Source of the DNA: Polyangiaceae bacterium
GTDB taxonomy: Bacteria > Myxococcota_A > Polyangia > Polyangiales > Polyangiaceae
Reading direction: 5' to 3'
Assembly: GCA_044224495.1 (NCBI GenBank)
Contig: JBGAKG010000005.1
Span: 108,711-172,710, forward strand
DNA length: 64,000 bases
Shown one piece after another: positions 38,014-50,722 of the stretch. A program made the position numbers and the translations under genes. Under the pieces are notes generated by a model that was not told where the DNA came from, searched no databases, and saw only the letters and a list, made by a program, of their open reading frames with translations. The number at the start of each line of letters is the position of its first letter. Position 1 is the stretch's first letter.

Positions 38014-40359
38014 GTGGAAAAGAGAGTGCCCCAATTTTTCGCCATGGCGGAAGCGCTCCAACCCATCCCTGGCCTCGAAGACGACGAGGAAGGCGCGCGC
38101 ATCGTGCGCGAAGAGCTCCGGCTCTTCCGGACGGTGAGCGCGGCCCTCGACGCGGCGGACAAGCGCGCCCACTCCGACGAAGCGCGGCTCGCCAGCGACG
38201 ACGCACGGCTCCTGGAGCTCCGGGAGGACGTCTCGACCGCCAAGCCCGAGGATCTCCCGGCGCTCTTCGAGCAGATGCACACGCTCGGGGCGCTCCGGGC
38301 GCAGCGGGGAAAGAGCGCGACCGGCGTGGTCGACCGCAAGTCGCCCTACTTCGGGCACCTCCGGCTGGAAGAGGACGGGAAGCGCCGGGACGTGCTCATC
38401 GGGGGGCGCTCCTACCTCGACGCCAACGCGGGCGTCCGGATCGTCGACTGGCGCAACGCGCCGGTGAGCAAGATCTTCTACCGCTACCAAGAGGGCGACG
38501 ACTACGAAGAGGAGCTCGGCGAGCGCATCGTCGAGGGGTGCGTGACCATCCGGCGCACGGTCGCCATCGCCGCCGGCGAGCTGGTCCGCGTGTCCTCCCG
38601 CCAAGGCACGTTCGTGCGCCAGGGCGAGCGCTGGAAGCGGCTCGAGGCGACTCGCGCGCGGCTCCGCACGGGCAGCAAGGAGTCCGCGCGCCTCGGCGCC
38701 TCGTCCGACGTCGCGCGCCGTGACGACCGCTTCCTCCCCGAGATCTCGGCGATGCTCGACCCGGCGCAGTTCGAGCTCATCGCGAAGCCGGGCTCCGGCG
38801 TCGTCGCGATCCAGGGCAGCGCGGGCAGCGGCAAGACCACCGTCGGTCTCCACCGCGCGGCCTACCTCGCGTTCGCGGACGCACGCCGCTTCCGCCCCGA
38901 TCGGATGCTCGTCGTCGTCCCGAACGACGGCCTGCGCCACTACGTCGCGCGCGTGCTTCCGTCGCTCGGCGTCGACGGCGTGAACATCACGACGTTCACG
39001 CGCTTCGCGTCGCGCGCCTCGCTCGAGCTCTTCCCGCGGCTCCCGACCGCGATCTCGGACGACACGCCGCCCGCGGTCTCGCGCGCCAAGTCGCACCCCG
39101 CGATGCTGCGCGCCATGCAGGCGCTCCGCGATCAGGTCGCGCAAGAGGTGGACGAGCGCCTCCGGAAGACGATGGAAAAGTGGCCCTCGGGCGACGTCGT
39201 CGTTCGCGCCTGGGCCGAGGTCCCACGGACGCTCGCGCCGGACGCGCAGCTCAGCACCCTCGCGGCGTGGCTCGTCGGCAAGCGCGCGCTCGGAGCGGTG
39301 ACCGCGTCCACGTTGCCCGACGTCACGCGCGCCACCCTCGAGAAGCTCGGGCAGGACCTTCGCCACCGCACGCGCGCAGTCCTCCAGGCTTGGGACGAGC
39401 TCCTGACCTCGCGCGAGCGCCTTGCGAAGACGTTCGACGGCATCCCGAGCTTCCCGCCCGCCCGGCTCGACCAGGTGCACGACTGGTGCGTGCGCCAAGC
39501 TCGGATCCGCGCCGAGGGCGAGCGCGACGGCGACGCGCCGACGGTCGACGCCGAAGATCGGGCTCTTCTTCTACGGCTCTGGCAGCTCCTCCGTGGTCCG
39601 CTCCCCGACGGCGACGGGACGCCGCTCCGGCTCGCTCATCTCTTCGTGGACGAGGTGCAGGACGCGTCGCCGGTCGAGCTGCGCGTGCTCATGGATCTCG
39701 CCGACCAGGAGCAGTGCGTCACGCTCGCCGGAGACGTGGCTCAGCGTATGGACGAGGACGACGATTCGCGCGGCGAGTTCCACTGGGCCGATCTGCTGAC
39801 GGAGCTCGGGCTCCCGGCCACCAACCTCGCGCCGCTCAAGGTGAGCTACCGCTCGACCGCCGAGATCACGCGGTTCGCGCGCGCGGTGCTCGGTCCGCTC
39901 GCGCACGACGCGGAGCCGATCGCCACGCGCCACGGCCCACCGGTCGAGCTGTTCACGTTCGCGTCGTCGGGCGAGGCCGTCGCGTTCCTCGCCGATGCCT
40001 TGCGCCAGCTCCACGCCGACGAGCCGCAAGCGAGCGTCGCGCTCGTCGCGCGGTTCCCGCAGCAAGCGGCGGTGTACTTCGAGGGGCTCGACCGCGCCGA
40101 GGTGCCGAACCTCCGCCGCGTCGCCAAGCAGGACTTCACGTTCGAGCCCGGCTTCGACGTGACGGACATCCGGCAGACGAAGGGCCTCGAGTTCGACGAG
40201 GTGATCCTCCTCGAGACGAACGAAGCGACCTTCCCCGATCGTCCGCCGGCGCGCCACGCCCTCTACGTCGGCGCGACGCGCGCCGCGCATCAGCTCTGGT
40301 GCGTGACGGGCGACAAGCCCTCGCCGGTCGTCCTCGGGTCGCTCGACCCGACGGCGTGA
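38014..40359 (+). CDS. UvrD/HelD-like superfamily-1 DNA helicase
   Basis: Walker A GSAGSGKTTVGLHRAAYL, motif II LFVDEVQD, helicase motifs V-VI. The long N-terminal domain resembles HelD (helicase IV). Confidence 0.75.
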   Translation: MEKRVPQFFAMAEALQPIPGLEDDEEGARIVREELRLFRTVSAALDAADKRAHSDEARLASDDARLLELREDVSTAKPEDLPALFEQMHTLGALRAQRGKSATGVVDRKSPYFGHLRLEEDGKRRDVLIGGRSYLDANAGVRIVDWRNAPVSKIFYRYQEGDDYEEELGERIVEGCVTIRRTVAIAAGELVRVSSRQGTFVRQGERWKRLEATRARLRTGSKESARLGASSDVARRDDRFLPEISAMLDPAQFELIAKPGSGVVAIQGSAGSGKTTVGLHRAAYLAFADARRFRPDRMLVVVPNDGLRHYVARVLPSLGVDGVNITTFTRFASRASLELFPRLPTAISDDTPPAVSRAKSHPAMLRAMQALRDQVAQEVDERLRKTMEKWPSGDVVVRAWAEVPRTLAPDAQLSTLAAWLVGKRALGAVTASTLPDVTRATLEKLGQDLRHRTRAVLQAWDELLTSRERLAKTFDGIPSFPPARLDQVHDWCVRQARIRAEGERDGDAPTVDAEDRALLLRLWQLLRGPLPDGDGTPLRLAHLFVDEVQDASPVELRVLMDLADQEQCVTLAGDVAQRMDEDDDSRGEFHWADLLTELGLPATNLAPLKVSYRSTAEITRFARAVLGPLAHDAEPIATRHGPPVELFTFASSGEAVAFLADALRQLHADEPQASVALVARFPQQAAVYFEGLDRAEVPNLRRVAKQDFTFEPGFDVTDIRQTKGLEFDEVILLETNEATFPDRPPARHALYVGATRAAHQLWCVTGDKPSPVVLGSLDPTA

Positions 40360-40813
40360 TGCTGGAGCCATAGGGCCACGATCCCCCACGCGAGCGCGAC
40401 GGACACGCCCCCGTCGACCATCGCACGCCACGGCTCGGGCAGCGCACGCACGGCGACCGCAGCCCCGACGATGGCGAATGCACCCGCCCACGCGCGCAGC
40501 AGCGTCGCGCGCGGCACCCCGATCAGGCCCAGCGCGTGGAGCGGCGCCGCGAACGTGCAGAAGCCTCGTGGTGCGGCGCCGAGCGCGTGTGCGCGCGCGA
40601 GGACGGCGGGCATGAAGCGCCGTTGCAGCGCGAGGTAGCCCTCGCCCCAGGCGAACGCGCCGACGATGGCGGCGAAGCAGACCCACTGGAGGGGGCTCAG
40701 CGCGTTCGCCTCGAGCAGGCGGAGTGCGCGCAGCCCCAGCCTCGCGCAGCCGTCGGCGAGCACCAGCGTGACCCCGACGAGCGCCCAGAGCGTGACGAAG
40801 CGCGCGCGGCTCA
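40290..40813 (-). CDS. Integral membrane protein, hypothetical (last gene of the GTPase operon)
   Basis: Start MSRARFVTLWALVGV overlaps the GTPase stop (ATGA). Four to five TM segments. The 3' end overlaps the helD-like 3' end by about 70 bp. Confidence 0.45.
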
Positions 40814-49551: not shown

Positions 49552-49660
49552 TACCGCTCCAAGCTACAGCTCGGTCCTCCGCTCCGCACTTGTCCTCATG
49601 GACGGGGCGCCTGTCCATCACAACATGCCGCCCCCGGGGAAGAGACTCGGCGCGCCGAGC

Positions 49661-50722
49661 TCAGAACCCGAGCAAACGCATGAGATCGAGGCGCGAATCG
49701 GCGCCGAGCTTCTCCAGAACGTTGCCCTGGTGGAATTTCACGGTGCGGGGGCTGAGACCGAGGATGGTCGCGATGTCCTCGGGCGCCCGACCGAGCATCA
49801 GGTACTGGAGTACGTCGCGCTCGCGGGCCGTGAGCCCACCTTTCACGGCGAGCGCATCGATGCGCGCGCCGTGGATGGCCGCGAGCATCGGCTCGCTCAC
49901 CACGCGTCGCGTGACGTCGATGCTCTGCTTCGAAGCGGGCTTCGCGGAGATGACCTCGAACCCGCCTCGTTCGCGCCGCCGGACCACCGTGCGTGGCCAC
50001 GCGCCTTGCGTCTGGAGGAGCGGGCAGTCCTCGCACGGCGTCTCCCGCCGGGCGACGATCTCGAAGCAGCGAAACGAGCGCGCGCTTCCGTCGAAGGTGG
50101 TGCCACCGATGTTCTCGAGCCGACCGAAGTCCACGGCGTTGGCGTTCACGCGGTAGTCGAGATCCTGATCGGCGAGGTTGGTTCGCTGGACCGGGGTGAC
50201 GTCCTCGAGCATCAACAGCGTCGCTTGGCGGCGGCCGCGCCCCACGATCGCCGCCGAAAAGCGCGCGGTGTAGCGGATGCCGTCGCGCGAGGCGAGCTCG
50301 CAGCTTCCCTCGTTCAGCGCGCCGCGGAGCATCTGGTCGAACGTCGCTCGGCAGTGCGCTTGACGATCGGCGGGGACGTACACCTCGACCCACGAACGCC
50401 GCTCGACGTCCGCGAGGCCCCACCCGAACATGCGCCGCAGCGACTCGGAGATCGAGCAGATGATGCCGTCCGGGTCGAGGAGCGCGACGAGGAGCCCGCT
50501 CCGCTCGGCGAGGACGCTCGCGACGGCACGCCAGTCGAGATCGCGGGTGCGCCCGCGCGGCACGAGCGAGCGCGCACGGGTGCGCGGCGTTGCGTGCCAG
50601 CTCTGCCGGACGACGGGGAGTCGCACCGGGGCGAGTGCCTCGAGCGTCATGTGCTCGTCGGCCTCGTACTCGGCGCTCCCCGGCTGCACCGTCGGCTTCT
50701 TCGAGTCGGAGGCGCTCGTCAT
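49661..50722 (-). CDS. LuxR-family transcriptional regulator with N-terminal PAS-like sensory domain (paralogue 2)
   Basis: TARERDVLQYLMLGRAPEDIATILGLSPRTVKFHQGNVLEKLG. Colinear with paralogue 1 over about 300 aa. Confidence 0.7.
   Translation of the reverse strand: MTSASDSKKPTVQPGSAEYEADEHMTLEALAPVRLPVVRQSWHATPRTRARSLVPRGRTRDLDWRAVASVLAERSGLLVALLDPDGIICSISESLRRMFGWGLADVERRSWVEVYVPADRQAHCRATFDQMLRGALNEGSCELASRDGIRYTARFSAAIVGRGRRQATLLMLEDVTPVQRTNLADQDLDYRVNANAVDFGRLENIGGTTFDGSARSFRCFEIVARRETPCEDCPLLQTQGAWPRTVVRRRERGGFEVISAKPASKQSIDVTRRVVSEPMLAAIHGARIDALAVKGGLTARERDVLQYLMLGRAPEDIATILGLSPRTVKFHQGNVLEKLGADSRLDLMRLLGF

Follow-up and report, generated by a model that had tools for sequence, protein, structure and literature searches.

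MglB, MglC and Ragulator all rely on the Roadblock fold to bind small GTPases and regulate them. Ras-superfamily G domains can also be covalently joined to a kinase fold, as in the Roc GTPase-COR-kinase arrangement of Roco/LRRK2, and in Ras-RAF-KSR logic a pseudokinase may partner an active kinase. For MglA systems, the available text of one survey already records a 1:2 ratio of GTPase to Roadblock genes, with two coupled MglB genes, and notes that MglA groups 1 and 5 are occasionally linked to genes for PATAN-domain proteins (Wuichet & Sogaard-Andersen 2015, PMC4316618, citing Makarova et al. 2006). Here we describe a locus in a Polyangiaceae bacterium that places an MglA-family GTPase beside predicted Roadblock-fold, kinase-like and phosphatase proteins. 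In the literature that we searched, we came across no account of this GTPase-plus-phosphorylation module.

Layout of the locus

The window is a 64,000-nucleotide stretch of contig JBGAKG010000005.1. Using third-position GC frame analysis and start-codon mapping, we identified ten minus-strand genes within positions 40290-50722:

G10, 49661..50722, minus strand: PAS-LuxR regulator, 353 aa (Pfam GerE 3.4e-17, PAS_4 1e-4)
G9, 48460..49551, minus strand: second PAS-LuxR paralogue, 363 aa (Pfam GerE 1.4e-16, PAS 1e-6)
G8, 47279..48373, minus strand: conserved protein without a family match, 364 aa; opens the tight block
G7, 45993..47282, minus strand: PATAN (DUF4388/PatA_N) protein, 429 aa; PATAN at residues 5-125 (46908-47270)
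G6, 44674..46002, minus strand: fusion of an ABC-type nucleotide-binding domain and a CX5R phosphatase (Pfam)
G5, 44255..44659, minus strand: divergent Roadblock-fold protein, 134 aa (predicted structure)
G4, 43837..44241, minus strand: second predicted Roadblock-fold paralogue, 134 aa
G3, 42296..43888, minus strand: kinase-like domain (43046-43888) and calcineurin-like metallophosphoesterase (42416-43033), 530-aa ORF
G2, 40811..42292, minus strand: MglA-family GTPase with a kinase-fold pseudokinase, 493 aa
G1, 40290..40814, minus strand: small integral membrane protein, 174 aa; accessory

As the first-pass annotation had it, this is a packed cluster preceded by two tandem PAS-LuxR genes. The last eight genes, G8 to G1, form a tight block with overlaps or gaps of at most 20 nt throughout. 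The G8 stop overlaps the G7 start (ATGA), G7 overlaps G6 whether the latter starts at ATG 46002 or at the GTGA at 45996, and an ATGA overlap joins the G2 stop to G1. Spacings are 14 nt between G6 and G5, 13 nt between G5 and G4, and 3 nt between G3 and G2. The G4/G3 junction is overlapping or abutting. G3 has two candidate starts, GTG 43888 and a CTG at 43840, and its conserved N-terminal WFPRP motif begins at 43831, a distance of 6 nt from the stop of G4. The PAS-LuxR genes stand apart, with gaps of 109 nt (G10/G9) and 86 nt (G9/G8). A consensus scan inside the cluster found no promoter-like and no credible terminator-like site. Together, the spacing and the synteny described below suggest that the cluster is co-transcribed.

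Domain composition

The GTPase G2 consists of a G domain (residues 1-195; 41708-42292), a low-complexity linker and a kinase-fold domain (residues 262-493; 40814-41509). Its G domain matches Pfam Arf/MMR_HSR1, and MglA proteins are its best relatives of solved structure (PDB MglA E=8e-25), in agreement with the original call of an MglA-like GTPase. R53, T54, D58, Q82 and the SVPGQ G3 motif are kept. The first-pass annotation had credited the protein with every MglA G-motif; this is not fully accurate, as the P-loop, G-x-P-E-A-G-K-T, carries proline where MglA has Gly21 (Ras Gly12), and this Pro-Glu P-loop might make the domain cycle unlike MglA. The C-terminal extension is present as described, and what had been overlooked is that it has a kinase fold. 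Its top Foldseek match is the aminoglycoside phosphotransferase APH(3'')-IIb, with KSR and other pseudokinases also among the fold matches. Because this kinase-fold domain has no conserved catalytic residues, we call it a pseudokinase. Such domains are found in 122 clusters among 1.84 billion representatives, and all eight full-length matches tested (593-988 aa) bear an Arf/MglA-type N-terminus, indicating from these eight that the domain occurs essentially only fused to this GTPase.

G4 and G5 had been called Roadblock paralogues, with failed HMM searches named as evidence against the call. No Roadblock HMM, Robl_LC7 of Pfam included, matches either protein, and it is the predicted fold that supports the assignment. 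The AF2 model of G5 (pLDDT 80.8) has the topology a-b-b-a-b-b-b-a, and its top Foldseek matches are MglB 1j3w/3t12 (E 3.5e-7, TM 0.67), MglC and LAMTOR. G4 aligns to G5 over its full length at 35-37% identity, with gaps of just 1-2 residues. At the level of predicted structure, the two are thus paralogous Roadblock-fold proteins.

In G3, the phosphoesterase domain is well supported (Metallophos_2 1.1e-16, Metallophos 5.6e-13; Pfam), and every metal-binding motif is conserved. The earlier description as a metallophosphoesterase stands in this calcineurin-like sense, while the label "PPP-type" fits only loosely. The nearest NCBIfam models, both below cut-off, are those of the YfcE phosphodiesterase and ApaH Ap4A hydrolase, so Metallophos_2 might act as a phosphodiesterase. 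The N-terminal ~260 residues of G3, which had carried no annotation, are homologous to the C-terminal domain of G2 (hhalign probability 73%, E 3e-5, and 92.7%, E 4.3e-7 over 200 columns). They contain a Gly-rich VGVAG..DG, K85, D173-x4-N178 and D192 (530-aa ORF numbering): the K, the D-x4-N and the DFG-like D are all invariant and are spaced like PKA K72/D166/N171/D184. Searches against kinase HMMs and PDB kinase sequences gave no significant match, the best being the TTK catalytic loop (E 0.4), and a richer N-terminal profile matched nothing among kinases. Judged by its residues, the kinase-like domain is probably active, and it could phosphorylate a small molecule, the top Foldseek match of the kinase-fold domain being an aminoglycoside phosphotransferase. 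The first-pass annotation had passed over this domain and its catalytic-type residues.

The fusion of a CX5R phosphatase to an ABC-type ATPase, noticed in the first reading, is borne out in G6 by Pfam matches to ABC_tran (2.6e-17), PTP-SAK (3.8e-20), Tc-R-P (4e-18) and DSPc. The ABC domain spans residues ~1-250, and the dual-specificity-type phosphatase spans residues 286-434 with HCRAGLGRTG intact. No variation is seen in Walker A, Q-loop, Walker B and H-loop, but the LSGGQ signature has degenerated to L-P-x-x-x-Q-R, making ATP hydrolysis uncertain. PstB is the closest NCBIfam model (113 bits, far below cut-off). G7 is likewise the DUF4388-like protein first reported: its PATAN domain scores just under the PF14332 cut-off (8e-5, 23.1 bits against 25), and 10 of 11 G7 orthologues match this model (best 1.9e-7). 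Its C-terminal ~130 residues are tentatively Roadblock-like, with a hhalign probability of 40.7% to the G4/G5 profile; in locus L003, the C-terminus of a shorter PATAN protein gives a direct match to G5 (29% identity, E 1.9e-6). G8 has no match among Pfam, NCBIfam and PDB profiles, and G1 has none in Pfam or NCBIfam. Between its PAS and HTH parts, G10 features a C-x10-C-x2-C motif.

Conservation and interpretation

The order G8-G7-G6-G5-G4-G3-G2 is shared by nine other loci, mostly from Polyangia (L002, L004, L005, L007, L008, L011, L016, L020 and L022), while L010 and L023 hold partial gene sets. Flanking genes vary from locus to locus. The G8 to G2 set is inherited as a block, and its arrangement is not chance, as the same order recurs in nine other loci. 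G8 has orthologues of 30-45% identity at the same position in nine loci. The Roadblock pair is 73-87% identical between loci (G4 73-87% to its own orthologues, G5 75-86% across complete type-A loci) compared with 32-59% for the other genes, an extreme conservation that fits proteins making several contacts at once. G1 homologues (37-48% identity) occur only in L002, L004, L008, L022 and L023. The PAS-LuxR protein G10 has homologues upstream of the module in L002, L004, L007 and L008; in L022 and L024 they are nearby but on the opposite strand. In a variant architecture, the GTPase has tandem pseudokinases, a stand-alone kinase-like gene sits beside a Roadblock gene, and G6 directly follows the GTPase. 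This reshuffling of the same parts argues that they work together.

We lean, at slightly better than even confidence, toward reading the eight abutting genes as one multi-protein, GTPase-switched phospho-signalling module built on an MglA-family GTPase that is physically tied to phosphorylation chemistry. The pseudokinase of G2 and the catalytic-type residues of G3 led us to revise the view that only phosphatases are involved; the module appears to combine kinase-like proteins with phosphatases. Its mechanistic links, which we infer from domain identity and gene linkage, may run as follows. G4 and G5 would pair into a heterodimeric platform and set the nucleotide state of the G domain of G2, working as a GAP and/or exchange factor in the way that MglB works on MglA. 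This state would be relayed to the attached pseudokinase, which may pair with the homologous kinase-like domain of G3 and so switch the kinase/phosphatase balance of that protein. ATP binding to the ABC domain of G6 would gate its phosphatase, which would reset the phosphorylated target or targets. G7, with its possibly Roadblock-like tail, and G8 may be input or scaffold subunits, and the PAS-LuxR pair may regulate operon expression or provide a transcriptional output.

The first-pass annotation had suggested a polarity or signalling module. In a polarity or motility role, the GTPase would mark a pole, the Roadblock pair would act as its GAP, the PATAN protein would connect it with type IV pili or the gliding machinery, and the phosphatases would tune its partners. 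Such a regulator of the MglA/MglB type would explain the MglA-family G domain with its intrinsic Arg finger and Gln and the Roadblock fold of its partners. PATAN genes are also recorded as MglA/MglB neighbors in the available text of PMC4316618, and that of bioRxiv 10.1101/2021.06.11.447907 has PATAN regulators acting on pilus motors. However, neither this copy of the module nor those of related loci are flanked by motility genes, and neither the window nor the related-locus flanks, which differ between genomes, contain pilus, gliding, Frz or RomR/RomX-like genes. A family-specific pattern scan of genome contigs found no locus in Myxococcus or other Myxococcia, where MglA polarity is established, and the polarity module has nothing that corresponds to the kinase-like domains and two phosphatases. 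We consider this role unlikely. It is quite unlikely that the module serves small-molecule or nucleotide signalling, with the kinase-like domain acting on a metabolite or nucleotide, Metallophos_2 as a phosphodiesterase, the PstB-like ATPase as a phosphate or nucleotide sensor and the GTPase as a gate, a scheme consistent with the APH(3'')-IIb fold match and with the below-cut-off YfcE, ApaH and PstB models.

An anti-phage or inter-bacterial conflict system is very improbable. NTPase-plus-effector layouts and PTP-SAK/Tc-R-P phosphatase families are typical of such systems, the best Pfam phosphatase models bear names of conflict-system proteins, and the G6 ABC domain weakly matches PADLOC mad3 and mad8. 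Yet the other seven proteins have no PADLOC match, the neighbors have housekeeping roles (transketolase, GreA, BamB and a chaperonin, for example), and the class-wide conserved order and very high Roadblock identity are the opposite of patchy, fast-evolving defence islands. That these genes are accidental neighbors with no joint function is scarcely credible. Although the promoter/terminator scan gives no signal either way, synteny strongly disfavors this idea: the seven-gene order persists despite the divergence of most genes and different flanks, start and stop codons overlap, and the rearranged variant keeps the same parts.

Comparison with known systems

The proposed phospho-signalling module resembles the module for polarity that MglA/MglB(/MglC) form in Myxococcus xanthus and Thermus thermophilus. 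The G2 G domain is closest to MglA, sharing the S/TVPGQ G3 motif, the intrinsic Arg53 and Gln82, and the adjoining genes encode predicted Roadblock-fold proteins, for which MglB and MglC are the best structural matches. As first noted, however, the arrangement is not that of canonical mglBA. Its linkage is conserved across related loci. Unlike MglA, G2 is a 493-aa protein with a fused pseudokinase and has Pro-Glu in its P-loop in place of Gly21-Leu22. The Roadblock proteins come as two distinct paralogues unrecognized by any Robl_LC7 HMM, accompanied by co-operonic kinase-like/phosphoesterase and ABC/DSP fusions and no RomR/RomX/Frz context. The available text of the PMC4316618 survey deals with single-domain GTPases, reporting neither kinase-like fusions nor phosphatases, and for MglA groups 1, 4 and 5 it reports no conserved multi-gene neighborhood, whereas the neighborhood here is strongly conserved.

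Actinobacterial conservons (CvnA-D) are also conserved operons, in which an MglA-family GTPase is combined with a Roadblock protein, a kinase-type protein and one of unknown function, as far as the available texts describe them (PMC4316618; PMC12236503). In conservons, however, the kinase is a membrane histidine-kinase-like protein, and a DUF742 protein absent from our module takes part, while phosphatases, a PATAN protein and a GTPase-kinase fusion do not. Roco/LRRK2 proteins share the joining of a G domain and a kinase-fold domain in one chain, a likeness of architecture only: the G domain of G2 is MglA-type rather than Roc, COR and LRR are missing, and the fused domain has no catalytic residues. 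We found no specific homology of the module to the Roco/LRRK2 or RAF/KSR families. Finally, although Ragulator is a eukaryotic lysosomal complex with no detected sequence-level relationship to the module, Ragulator/LAMTOR-Rag likewise offers a GTPase a heterodimeric Roadblock-fold platform, and LAMTOR is among the top fold matches of G5.

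Gene layout at 40.3-50.7 kb

Because the window has a G+C content of about 71%, raw ORF lists are rich in spurious frames. We set gene boundaries by combining third-codon-position GC with start-codon mapping. Between 40.3 and 50.7 kb, third-position GC indicates a single coding frame at every position, always on the minus strand, and the procedure yielded ten genes.

Genes at 40290-50722 of the window
49661-50722, minus strand: G10, PAS-LuxR protein
48460-49551, minus strand: G9, PAS-LuxR protein
47279-48373, minus strand: G8, 364 aa, protein of no assigned family
45993-47282, minus strand: G7, PATAN protein
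44674-46002, minus strand: G6, ABC nucleotide-binding domain with CX5R phosphatase
44255-44659, minus strand: G5, 134 aa, Roadblock-fold candidate
43837-44241, minus strand: G4, 134 aa, Roadblock-fold candidate
42296-43888, minus strand: G3, unassigned N-terminus with Metallophos domain
40811-42292, minus strand: G2, GTPase, 493 aa
40290-40814, minus strand: G1, small membrane protein

From G8 to G1 the genes form a tightly packed block. The G8/G7 and G2/G1 junctions are ATGA overlaps, G7 and G6 overlap by 4 or 10 nt, and the remaining junctions are gaps of 3-20 nt. G9 and G10 lie on the same strand as the block, but spacers of 109 and 86 nt set them off. The start of G3 has two candidates. 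Its orthologues begin M-x-x-W-F-P-R-P, and the window copy of this motif runs from 43831, 6 nt past the G4 stop; G3 therefore starts either at GTG 43888 or at a CTG overlapping that stop. The GTG, which an independent gene caller also picks, gives a 52-nt overlap with G4. The first-pass annotation had described overlapping or near-abutting minus-strand genes preceded by two LuxR-type genes, and frame analysis and start mapping bear this layout out.

A consensus scan of the cluster, uninformative in 71% GC DNA, returned no promoter-like site and a sole terminator-like site, inside G8 and below chance expectation. For this reason, we can only infer that the block is co-transcribed. A repeat search in the LuxR intergenic regions found no convincing operator.

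Several features lie around the locus. At their 3' ends, G1 and a convergent UvrD-like helicase gene (38014-40359, plus strand) overlap by about 70 nt. The region directly upstream of the LuxR genes (50839-53652, minus strand) holds four paralogous ORFs in tandem, each about 200 aa long, with a lipoprotein-like N-terminus that ends in Cys and with the conserved motif G-Y-x-V-V-D-P-M-P-x-P-x-x-C; three of the four were searched against Pfam and had no match. At 36293-37961 (plus strand), a Crp-like regulator with a cNMP-binding domain is followed directly by a metallo-beta-lactamase-fold protein matching class II cAMP phosphodiesterases, and this pair may be a cyclic-nucleotide signalling unit. 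A 943-aa ORF at 30585-33416 (plus strand) matches Pfam MVP_shoulder (1.9e-11) and the Vault_3 repeat (1.6e-7), and is a major-vault-protein-like gene on a bacterial chromosome.

Domains of the encoded proteins

Residues 1-195 of the GTPase G2 form an MglA-family G domain. When all PDB sequences were searched with phmmer, G2 matched Thermus MglA (8e-25) and Myxococcus MglA (2.7e-21), with Arl2 next best at 1.2e-5, placing MglA ahead of Arf-like proteins by at least 16 orders of magnitude. Across an alignment of 20 family members, R53, T54, D58, SVPGQ and Q82 are invariant or nearly so. The family shares MglA numbering for R53, T54, D58 and S/T78-V-P-G-Q82, and N-K-x-D is also present. We take R53 to be the intrinsic arginine finger position of MglA, and T54 is the switch-I threonine. 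G2 also has the MglA-family version of the third G motif, T/S-x-x-G-Q, without the canonical Asp.

The P-loop is different. The consensus in the 20 members is D-G-x-P-E-A-G-K-T-T, with P21 in at least 90% of them and E22 and A23 invariant, so that G19-x-P21-E22-A23-G-K-T-T stands in this family where MglA has G-P-G21-L-C-G-K-T. The G2 sequence thus departs from the canonical G-x-G-x-x-G-K-T, in which the Gly at 21 corresponds to Ras Gly12. The G21V variant of MglA is locked in the GTP state, and in Ras, hydrolysis assisted by GAPs is disturbed by substitutions at codons 12 and 13. By analogy, the proline at this position suggests that the G domain of G2 may cycle differently from MglA. An earlier description of the protein as an MglA-like GTPase with every G-motif was right about the family, on the PDB matches and R53, T54, D58 and Q82, and not quite right about the motifs, as the P-loop carries Pro21-Glu22.

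Whereas MglA is a single-domain protein of about 195 aa, the 493-aa G2 has a separate domain at residues 262-493 that is conserved across the family alignment. Searching PDB profiles with its sequence returned nothing. A structure predicted from an 89-sequence alignment reached a pLDDT of 93.6 and a pTM of 0.88. Its Foldseek matches were weak (best E 4e-3, TM 0.25-0.41), and the top 50 were all kinase-fold proteins, including APH, KSR, STK10 and a lanthipeptide-synthetase kinase domain. On this model, the domain is predicted to be a divergent, minimal kinase-like fold with the bilobal arrangement. The invariant or nearly invariant residues are G, W, P, R, A, E, H, L and T, and the alignment contains no conserved Lys, Asp or Asn fit for catalysis, because of which we assign the modelled domain as a putative pseudokinase. 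In a profile alignment, a His occupies the position of a Lys in G3. The first-pass annotation had seen this region as an unusual 300-aa C-terminal extension; the extension is there, and predicted structure and Foldseek supply the kinase-fold pseudokinase identity that it had missed.

The N-terminal 260 or so residues of G3 are strongly conserved and have no Pfam match. Aligned by hhalign with the G2 pseudokinase domain, this region scored 73% (E 3e-5) over 76 columns of the N-lobe, and a richer G3 profile with an extended alignment raised this to 92.7% (E 4.3e-7) over 200 columns. A plain HMM of the region also matches both pseudokinase copies of P0070, a GTPase with tandem copies of the domain. 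Against PDB profiles, the best match was the TTK catalytic loop at a non-significant E of 0.4, and the richer profile found nothing. Catalytic-type residues are nonetheless invariant in alignments of 10-14 sequences (530-aa ORF numbering): in addition to a glycine-rich V-G-V-A-G-x-x-D-G motif, there is an invariant Lys, K85, aligned to the G2 His; an L-D-x-N/H-P-A/S-N-F motif spanning D173 to N178; and a Y-L/I/V-D-D/E motif containing D192. Lys-to-Asp, Asp-to-Asn and Asp-to-Asp spacings are 88, 5 and 19 residues, compared to 94, 5 and 18 for K72/D166/N171/D184 of PKA. In the extended alignment, the D-x4-N and Asp motifs fall on a helix-loop-hairpin segment of the G2 model, the place at which kinases have their catalytic loop and DFG. 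It is likely that the G3 N-terminus adopts a kinase fold and has a functional active site, and its substrate could be either a protein or a small molecule.

The window holds another kinase-like domain, in a 1176-aa protein (12117-15647, plus strand) with Pkinase, AAA_16 (STAND-type) and TPR matches. Eukaryotic-like kinases of this kind are typical of myxobacteria, and the protein has no relation to the kinase-like domains found in the module.

The C-terminal half of G3 matches Metallophos_2 (1.1e-16, 61.7 bits) and Metallophos (5.6e-13, 50.2 bits), both above cut-offs, and conserves the metal motifs ADVHGN, GDAVGYGP, GNHDH, HGAP and GHTH. One source labels its homologues 'ApaH/PP2A family', and the NCBIfam YfcE and ApaH matches are under cut-off. 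Of the proposed PPP-type metallophosphoesterase, the calcineurin-like Metallophos domain holds and the PPP label is only loosely justified.

The two small proteins G4 and G5 are 35-37% identical over their full length. Neither had a significant match in Pfam, NCBIfam or PDB sequences, and the Robl_LC7 profile (PF03259) matched neither them nor 22 family members even at E ≤10. The family profile gave weak matches to MAPKK1_Int (2.4e-4, two members) and, among PDB profiles, to MglC (E 0.14). An AlphaFold2 model of G5 built from a 29-sequence alignment (pLDDT 80.8, pTM 0.76) has the order helix-strand-strand-helix-strand-strand-strand-helix. Its best Foldseek match in the PDB was Thermus thermophilus MglB (E 3.5e-7, TM 0.67), alongside Myxococcus xanthus MglC, a Streptomyces Roadblock/LC7 protein (3kye), LAMTOR subunits and M. 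xanthus MglB, with a probability of 1.00 and TM of 0.62-0.68. G5 is thus predicted to adopt the Roadblock alpha-beta-beta-alpha-beta-beta-beta(-alpha) sandwich, a fold that G4 probably shares given its full-length identity to G5. The Roadblock assignment stands at the level of fold, because it is the structure model and not sequence profiles that matches MglB and MglC; the HMM check proposed for it failed. On the model, G4 and G5 represent a separate Roadblock-fold family that current profiles overlook. This family comprises 3427 database clusters at E ≤1e-3, and among the 120 matches listed all are 134 aa and none is Pfam-annotated.

G7 scores 23.1 bits (E 8e-5) against the PATAN/DUF4388 profile PF14332, whose cut-off is 25. 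The profile matches 10 of 11 G7 orthologues (best 1.9e-7), and the orthologue in locus L022 was already annotated PatA_N. The C-terminal 130 or so residues of G7 close with a conserved L-W-L...S-Q-G-L-G-W-A that is similar to V-V-M-V-T-K-K-S-V-N-Q-G-M-G-W-S, the final strand and helix of G4. By hhalign, this C-terminus matches the Roadblock family at 40.7% over 118 columns, and the tail of a shorter PATAN protein from a Sandaracinus locus (L003) matches G5 by tblastn (29% identity, E 1.9e-6). We tentatively place a Roadblock-like domain at the C-terminus of G7. The middle region of G7 was also considered as a Roadblock relative and was ruled out (probability 0.1%).

G6 had been described as a CX5R phosphatase fused to an ABC-type ATPase, which Pfam and conserved motifs confirm (ABC_tran 2.6e-17, PTP-SAK 3.8e-20, Tc-R-P 4e-18, DSPc 8e-7). 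All 13 orthologues examined share invariant Walker A, Q-loop, Walker B D-E and H-loop residues (G41, G46, K47, S48, Q97, D176, E177, T207 and H208) and, in the phosphatase, an invariant H-C-x5-R loop and general-acid Asp; the HCRAGLGRTGT and PIPDM segments are conserved. The LSGGQ signature is replaced by L-P/S-x-x-x-Q-R. The nearest named ABC family in NCBIfam is PstB, at 113 bits and far under cut-off, and the module contains no conserved permease gene to partner G6.

For G8, neither Pfam nor NCBIfam revealed a relative of known fold, and the PDB profile match was at chance level (E about 1.5). G1 is a small hydrophobic protein found in a subset of loci only. G9 and G10 are PAS and GerE (LuxR-type HTH) proteins by Pfam. 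Between PAS and HTH, both conserve a C-x10-C-x2-C (RCFEVLHKRSSPCDDCP, RCFEIVARRETPCEDCP), a motif that could be a metal- or redox-sensing site.

Conservation and rearrangement across related loci

A scan of one genome per species together with homologue look-ups identified 23 related loci, in which we mapped synteny by tblastn with all ten window proteins as queries. The order G8-G7-G6-G5-G4-G3-G2 recurs in 9 of the 23, from Labilithrix (L002, L004), Polyangiaceae (L005, L007, L011, L016), 'Myxococcales 68-20' (L008), Sandaracinaceae (L020) and a 380-kb metagenome contig (L022); two others, L010 and L023, hold partial sets. Flanking genes vary from locus to locus; the linkage that was to be checked is conserved. 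The best matches to the window come from Polyangia. One or two PAS-LuxR genes stand ahead of the block in L002, L004, L007 and L008 and nearby in L022 and L024, and G1 follows it in L002, L004, L008, L022 and L023. In the nine complete loci, identity to the window is 75-86% for G5 and 73-87% for G4, compared to 35-45% for G8, 32-38% for G7, 46-59% for G6, 46-53% for G3 and 34-51% for full-length G2. Judged by these identities, the Roadblock pair is by far the most constrained part of the module.

Five loci (L009, L017, L018, L019 and L024) have a variant architecture in which G5 is followed by a GTPase of 611-745 aa and then G6, with G7 divergently transcribed. In L009, L017 and L024 (P0070), the pseudokinase domain of the GTPase is present twice, in tandem. 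Two of these loci, L017 and L024, also have a G4-like Roadblock gene ahead of a stand-alone kinase-like gene of 268-274 aa that lacks the phosphoesterase. The parts list is kept while the fusions are reshuffled, which is strong evidence for functional coupling.

Other arrangements were also seen. In L003 (Sandaracinus sp.), the components are dispersed: G5, the short PATAN gene with its G5-like tail and G6 share one strand, and the GTPase-pseudokinase gene lies about 5 kb off, where it immediately follows genes for a PAS histidine kinase and a sigma54 activator, with a response-regulator-PATAN protein between the two groups. L023, a Logan contig, holds a paralogue of the G4-G3-G2-G1 cluster in which the GTPase is 595 aa long, its G domain 63% and its G4 87% identical to the window. 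Run SRR28480385 yielded both L023 and L001, the latter identical in sequence to the window, so that a single organism may have the module twice; the NCBI copies of the two clusters are on 299-kb and 432-kb contigs. Module genes also occur on records titled Gemmatimonadota (L006) and Terriglobia (L010), which could reflect horizontal transfer or mis-binning.

The pseudokinase domain is rare. A HMMER search of 1.84 billion representatives found it in only 122 clusters. All eight full-length matches that we tested (593-988 aa) have an Arf/MglA-type N-terminus, and two shorter ones have no Pfam domain. Scanning species-representative genomes with family-specific patterns recovered no Myxococcus-type locus.

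A proposed GTPase-centred circuit and its relation to known systems

Taken together, our observations make it very probable that these genes constitute one GTPase-centred phospho-signalling module. Dimers of Roadblock proteins contact the switch regions of small GTPases and serve as GAP and/or GEF platforms (MglB:MglA 2:1; Ragulator:Rag), and pseudokinases commonly regulate an active paralogue by dimerisation (KSR-RAF, STRAD-LKB1). We propose that a G4-G5 heterodimer would set the nucleotide state of G2, which the fused pseudokinase would read; by pairing with the kinase-like domain of G3, the pseudokinase would shift the balance between G3 kinase and phosphoesterase activities. G6 would act as a second, ATP-gated phosphatase, G7 and G8 as input or scaffold, and the PAS-LuxR proteins would either drive the operon or constitute its output. 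We hold this explanation as a whole, wiring included, to be somewhat better than an even bet, and our confidence in the specific wiring taken alone is modest.

A polarity or motility role, as first suggested for the locus, would suit the MglA/Roadblock/PATAN triad (PMC4316618), but motility, Frz and RomR/X genes are absent around all loci examined, and we think this role unlikely. The kinase-like domains might instead serve small-molecule or nucleotide chemistry, given that APH is the top Foldseek match of the kinase-fold domain, that G3 has YfcE/ApaH-like phosphoesterase matches and that the G6 ATPase is PstB-like; we regard this as quite improbable. Weak PADLOC matches to the G6 ABC domain could point to a defence system, which is unlikely because PADLOC made no system assignment, the neighbourhood is of housekeeping type and vertical conservation is strong. 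That the genes are adjacent by accident is for practical purposes excluded by synteny. A phospho-signalling module thus remains our preferred reading. In its boldest form, which we consider doubtful, the locus would be the prototype of a bacterial GTPase-to-kinase circuit, in which an MglA-type switch, set by a Roadblock heterodimer, has its pseudokinase allosterically activate a homologous minimal protein kinase fused to the phosphatase that opposes it. If true, Ras-KSR-RAF or LRRK2 would have a bacterial analogue in a self-contained Ras-like/kinase/phosphatase circuit, one made from a previously unrecognised kinase-like family that so far appears to be largely confined to Polyangia.

To our knowledge, almost all small Ras-like GTPases known to be under Roadblock control in bacteria belong to the MglA polarity switch or to conservons, which are poorly understood. 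Here, a GTPase is covalently tied to a predicted kinase-fold domain and co-inherited with a related kinase-like domain that has catalytic-type residues and with two phosphatases, which offers a specific and testable scheme for how a GTPase could control phosphorylation in a bacterium. Should this mechanism hold, eukaryotic Ras/kinase and Roco signalling would have a bacterial counterpart, and the poorly studied cell biology of Polyangia a point of entry. Full-text searches of a literature collection that covers a minority of subscription journals found no account of such a module.

Among known systems, Roco/LRRK2 proteins are architecturally close to the module; their G domain is Roc with COR, whereas here it is MglA-type, and Pfam finds no COR or LRR match in the ten proteins. 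A GTPase-Roadblock core is common to the module, MglA/MglB(/MglC), those MglA systems that have two MglB genes and PATAN genes nearby (PMC4316618) and the actinobacterial conservons, which combine a GTPase and a Roadblock protein with a histidine-kinase-like and an unknown protein (PMC4316618; PMC12236503). Unlike the conservons, with their histidine kinase CvnA and DUF742 protein CvnC, the ten window proteins have no Pfam match to HisKA, HATPase_c or DUF742. We conclude that the locus is a variant MglA/Roadblock GTPase system with three families missing from profile libraries: the large, highly conserved Roadblock family, the pseudokinase known only from this GTPase and the kinase-like relative of that pseudokinase. 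Compared with the three core-sharing systems, only the module has the GTPase-pseudokinase fusion, the kinase-like/phosphoesterase fusion, the ABC/dual-specificity phosphatase fusion and the Pro-Glu P-loop.
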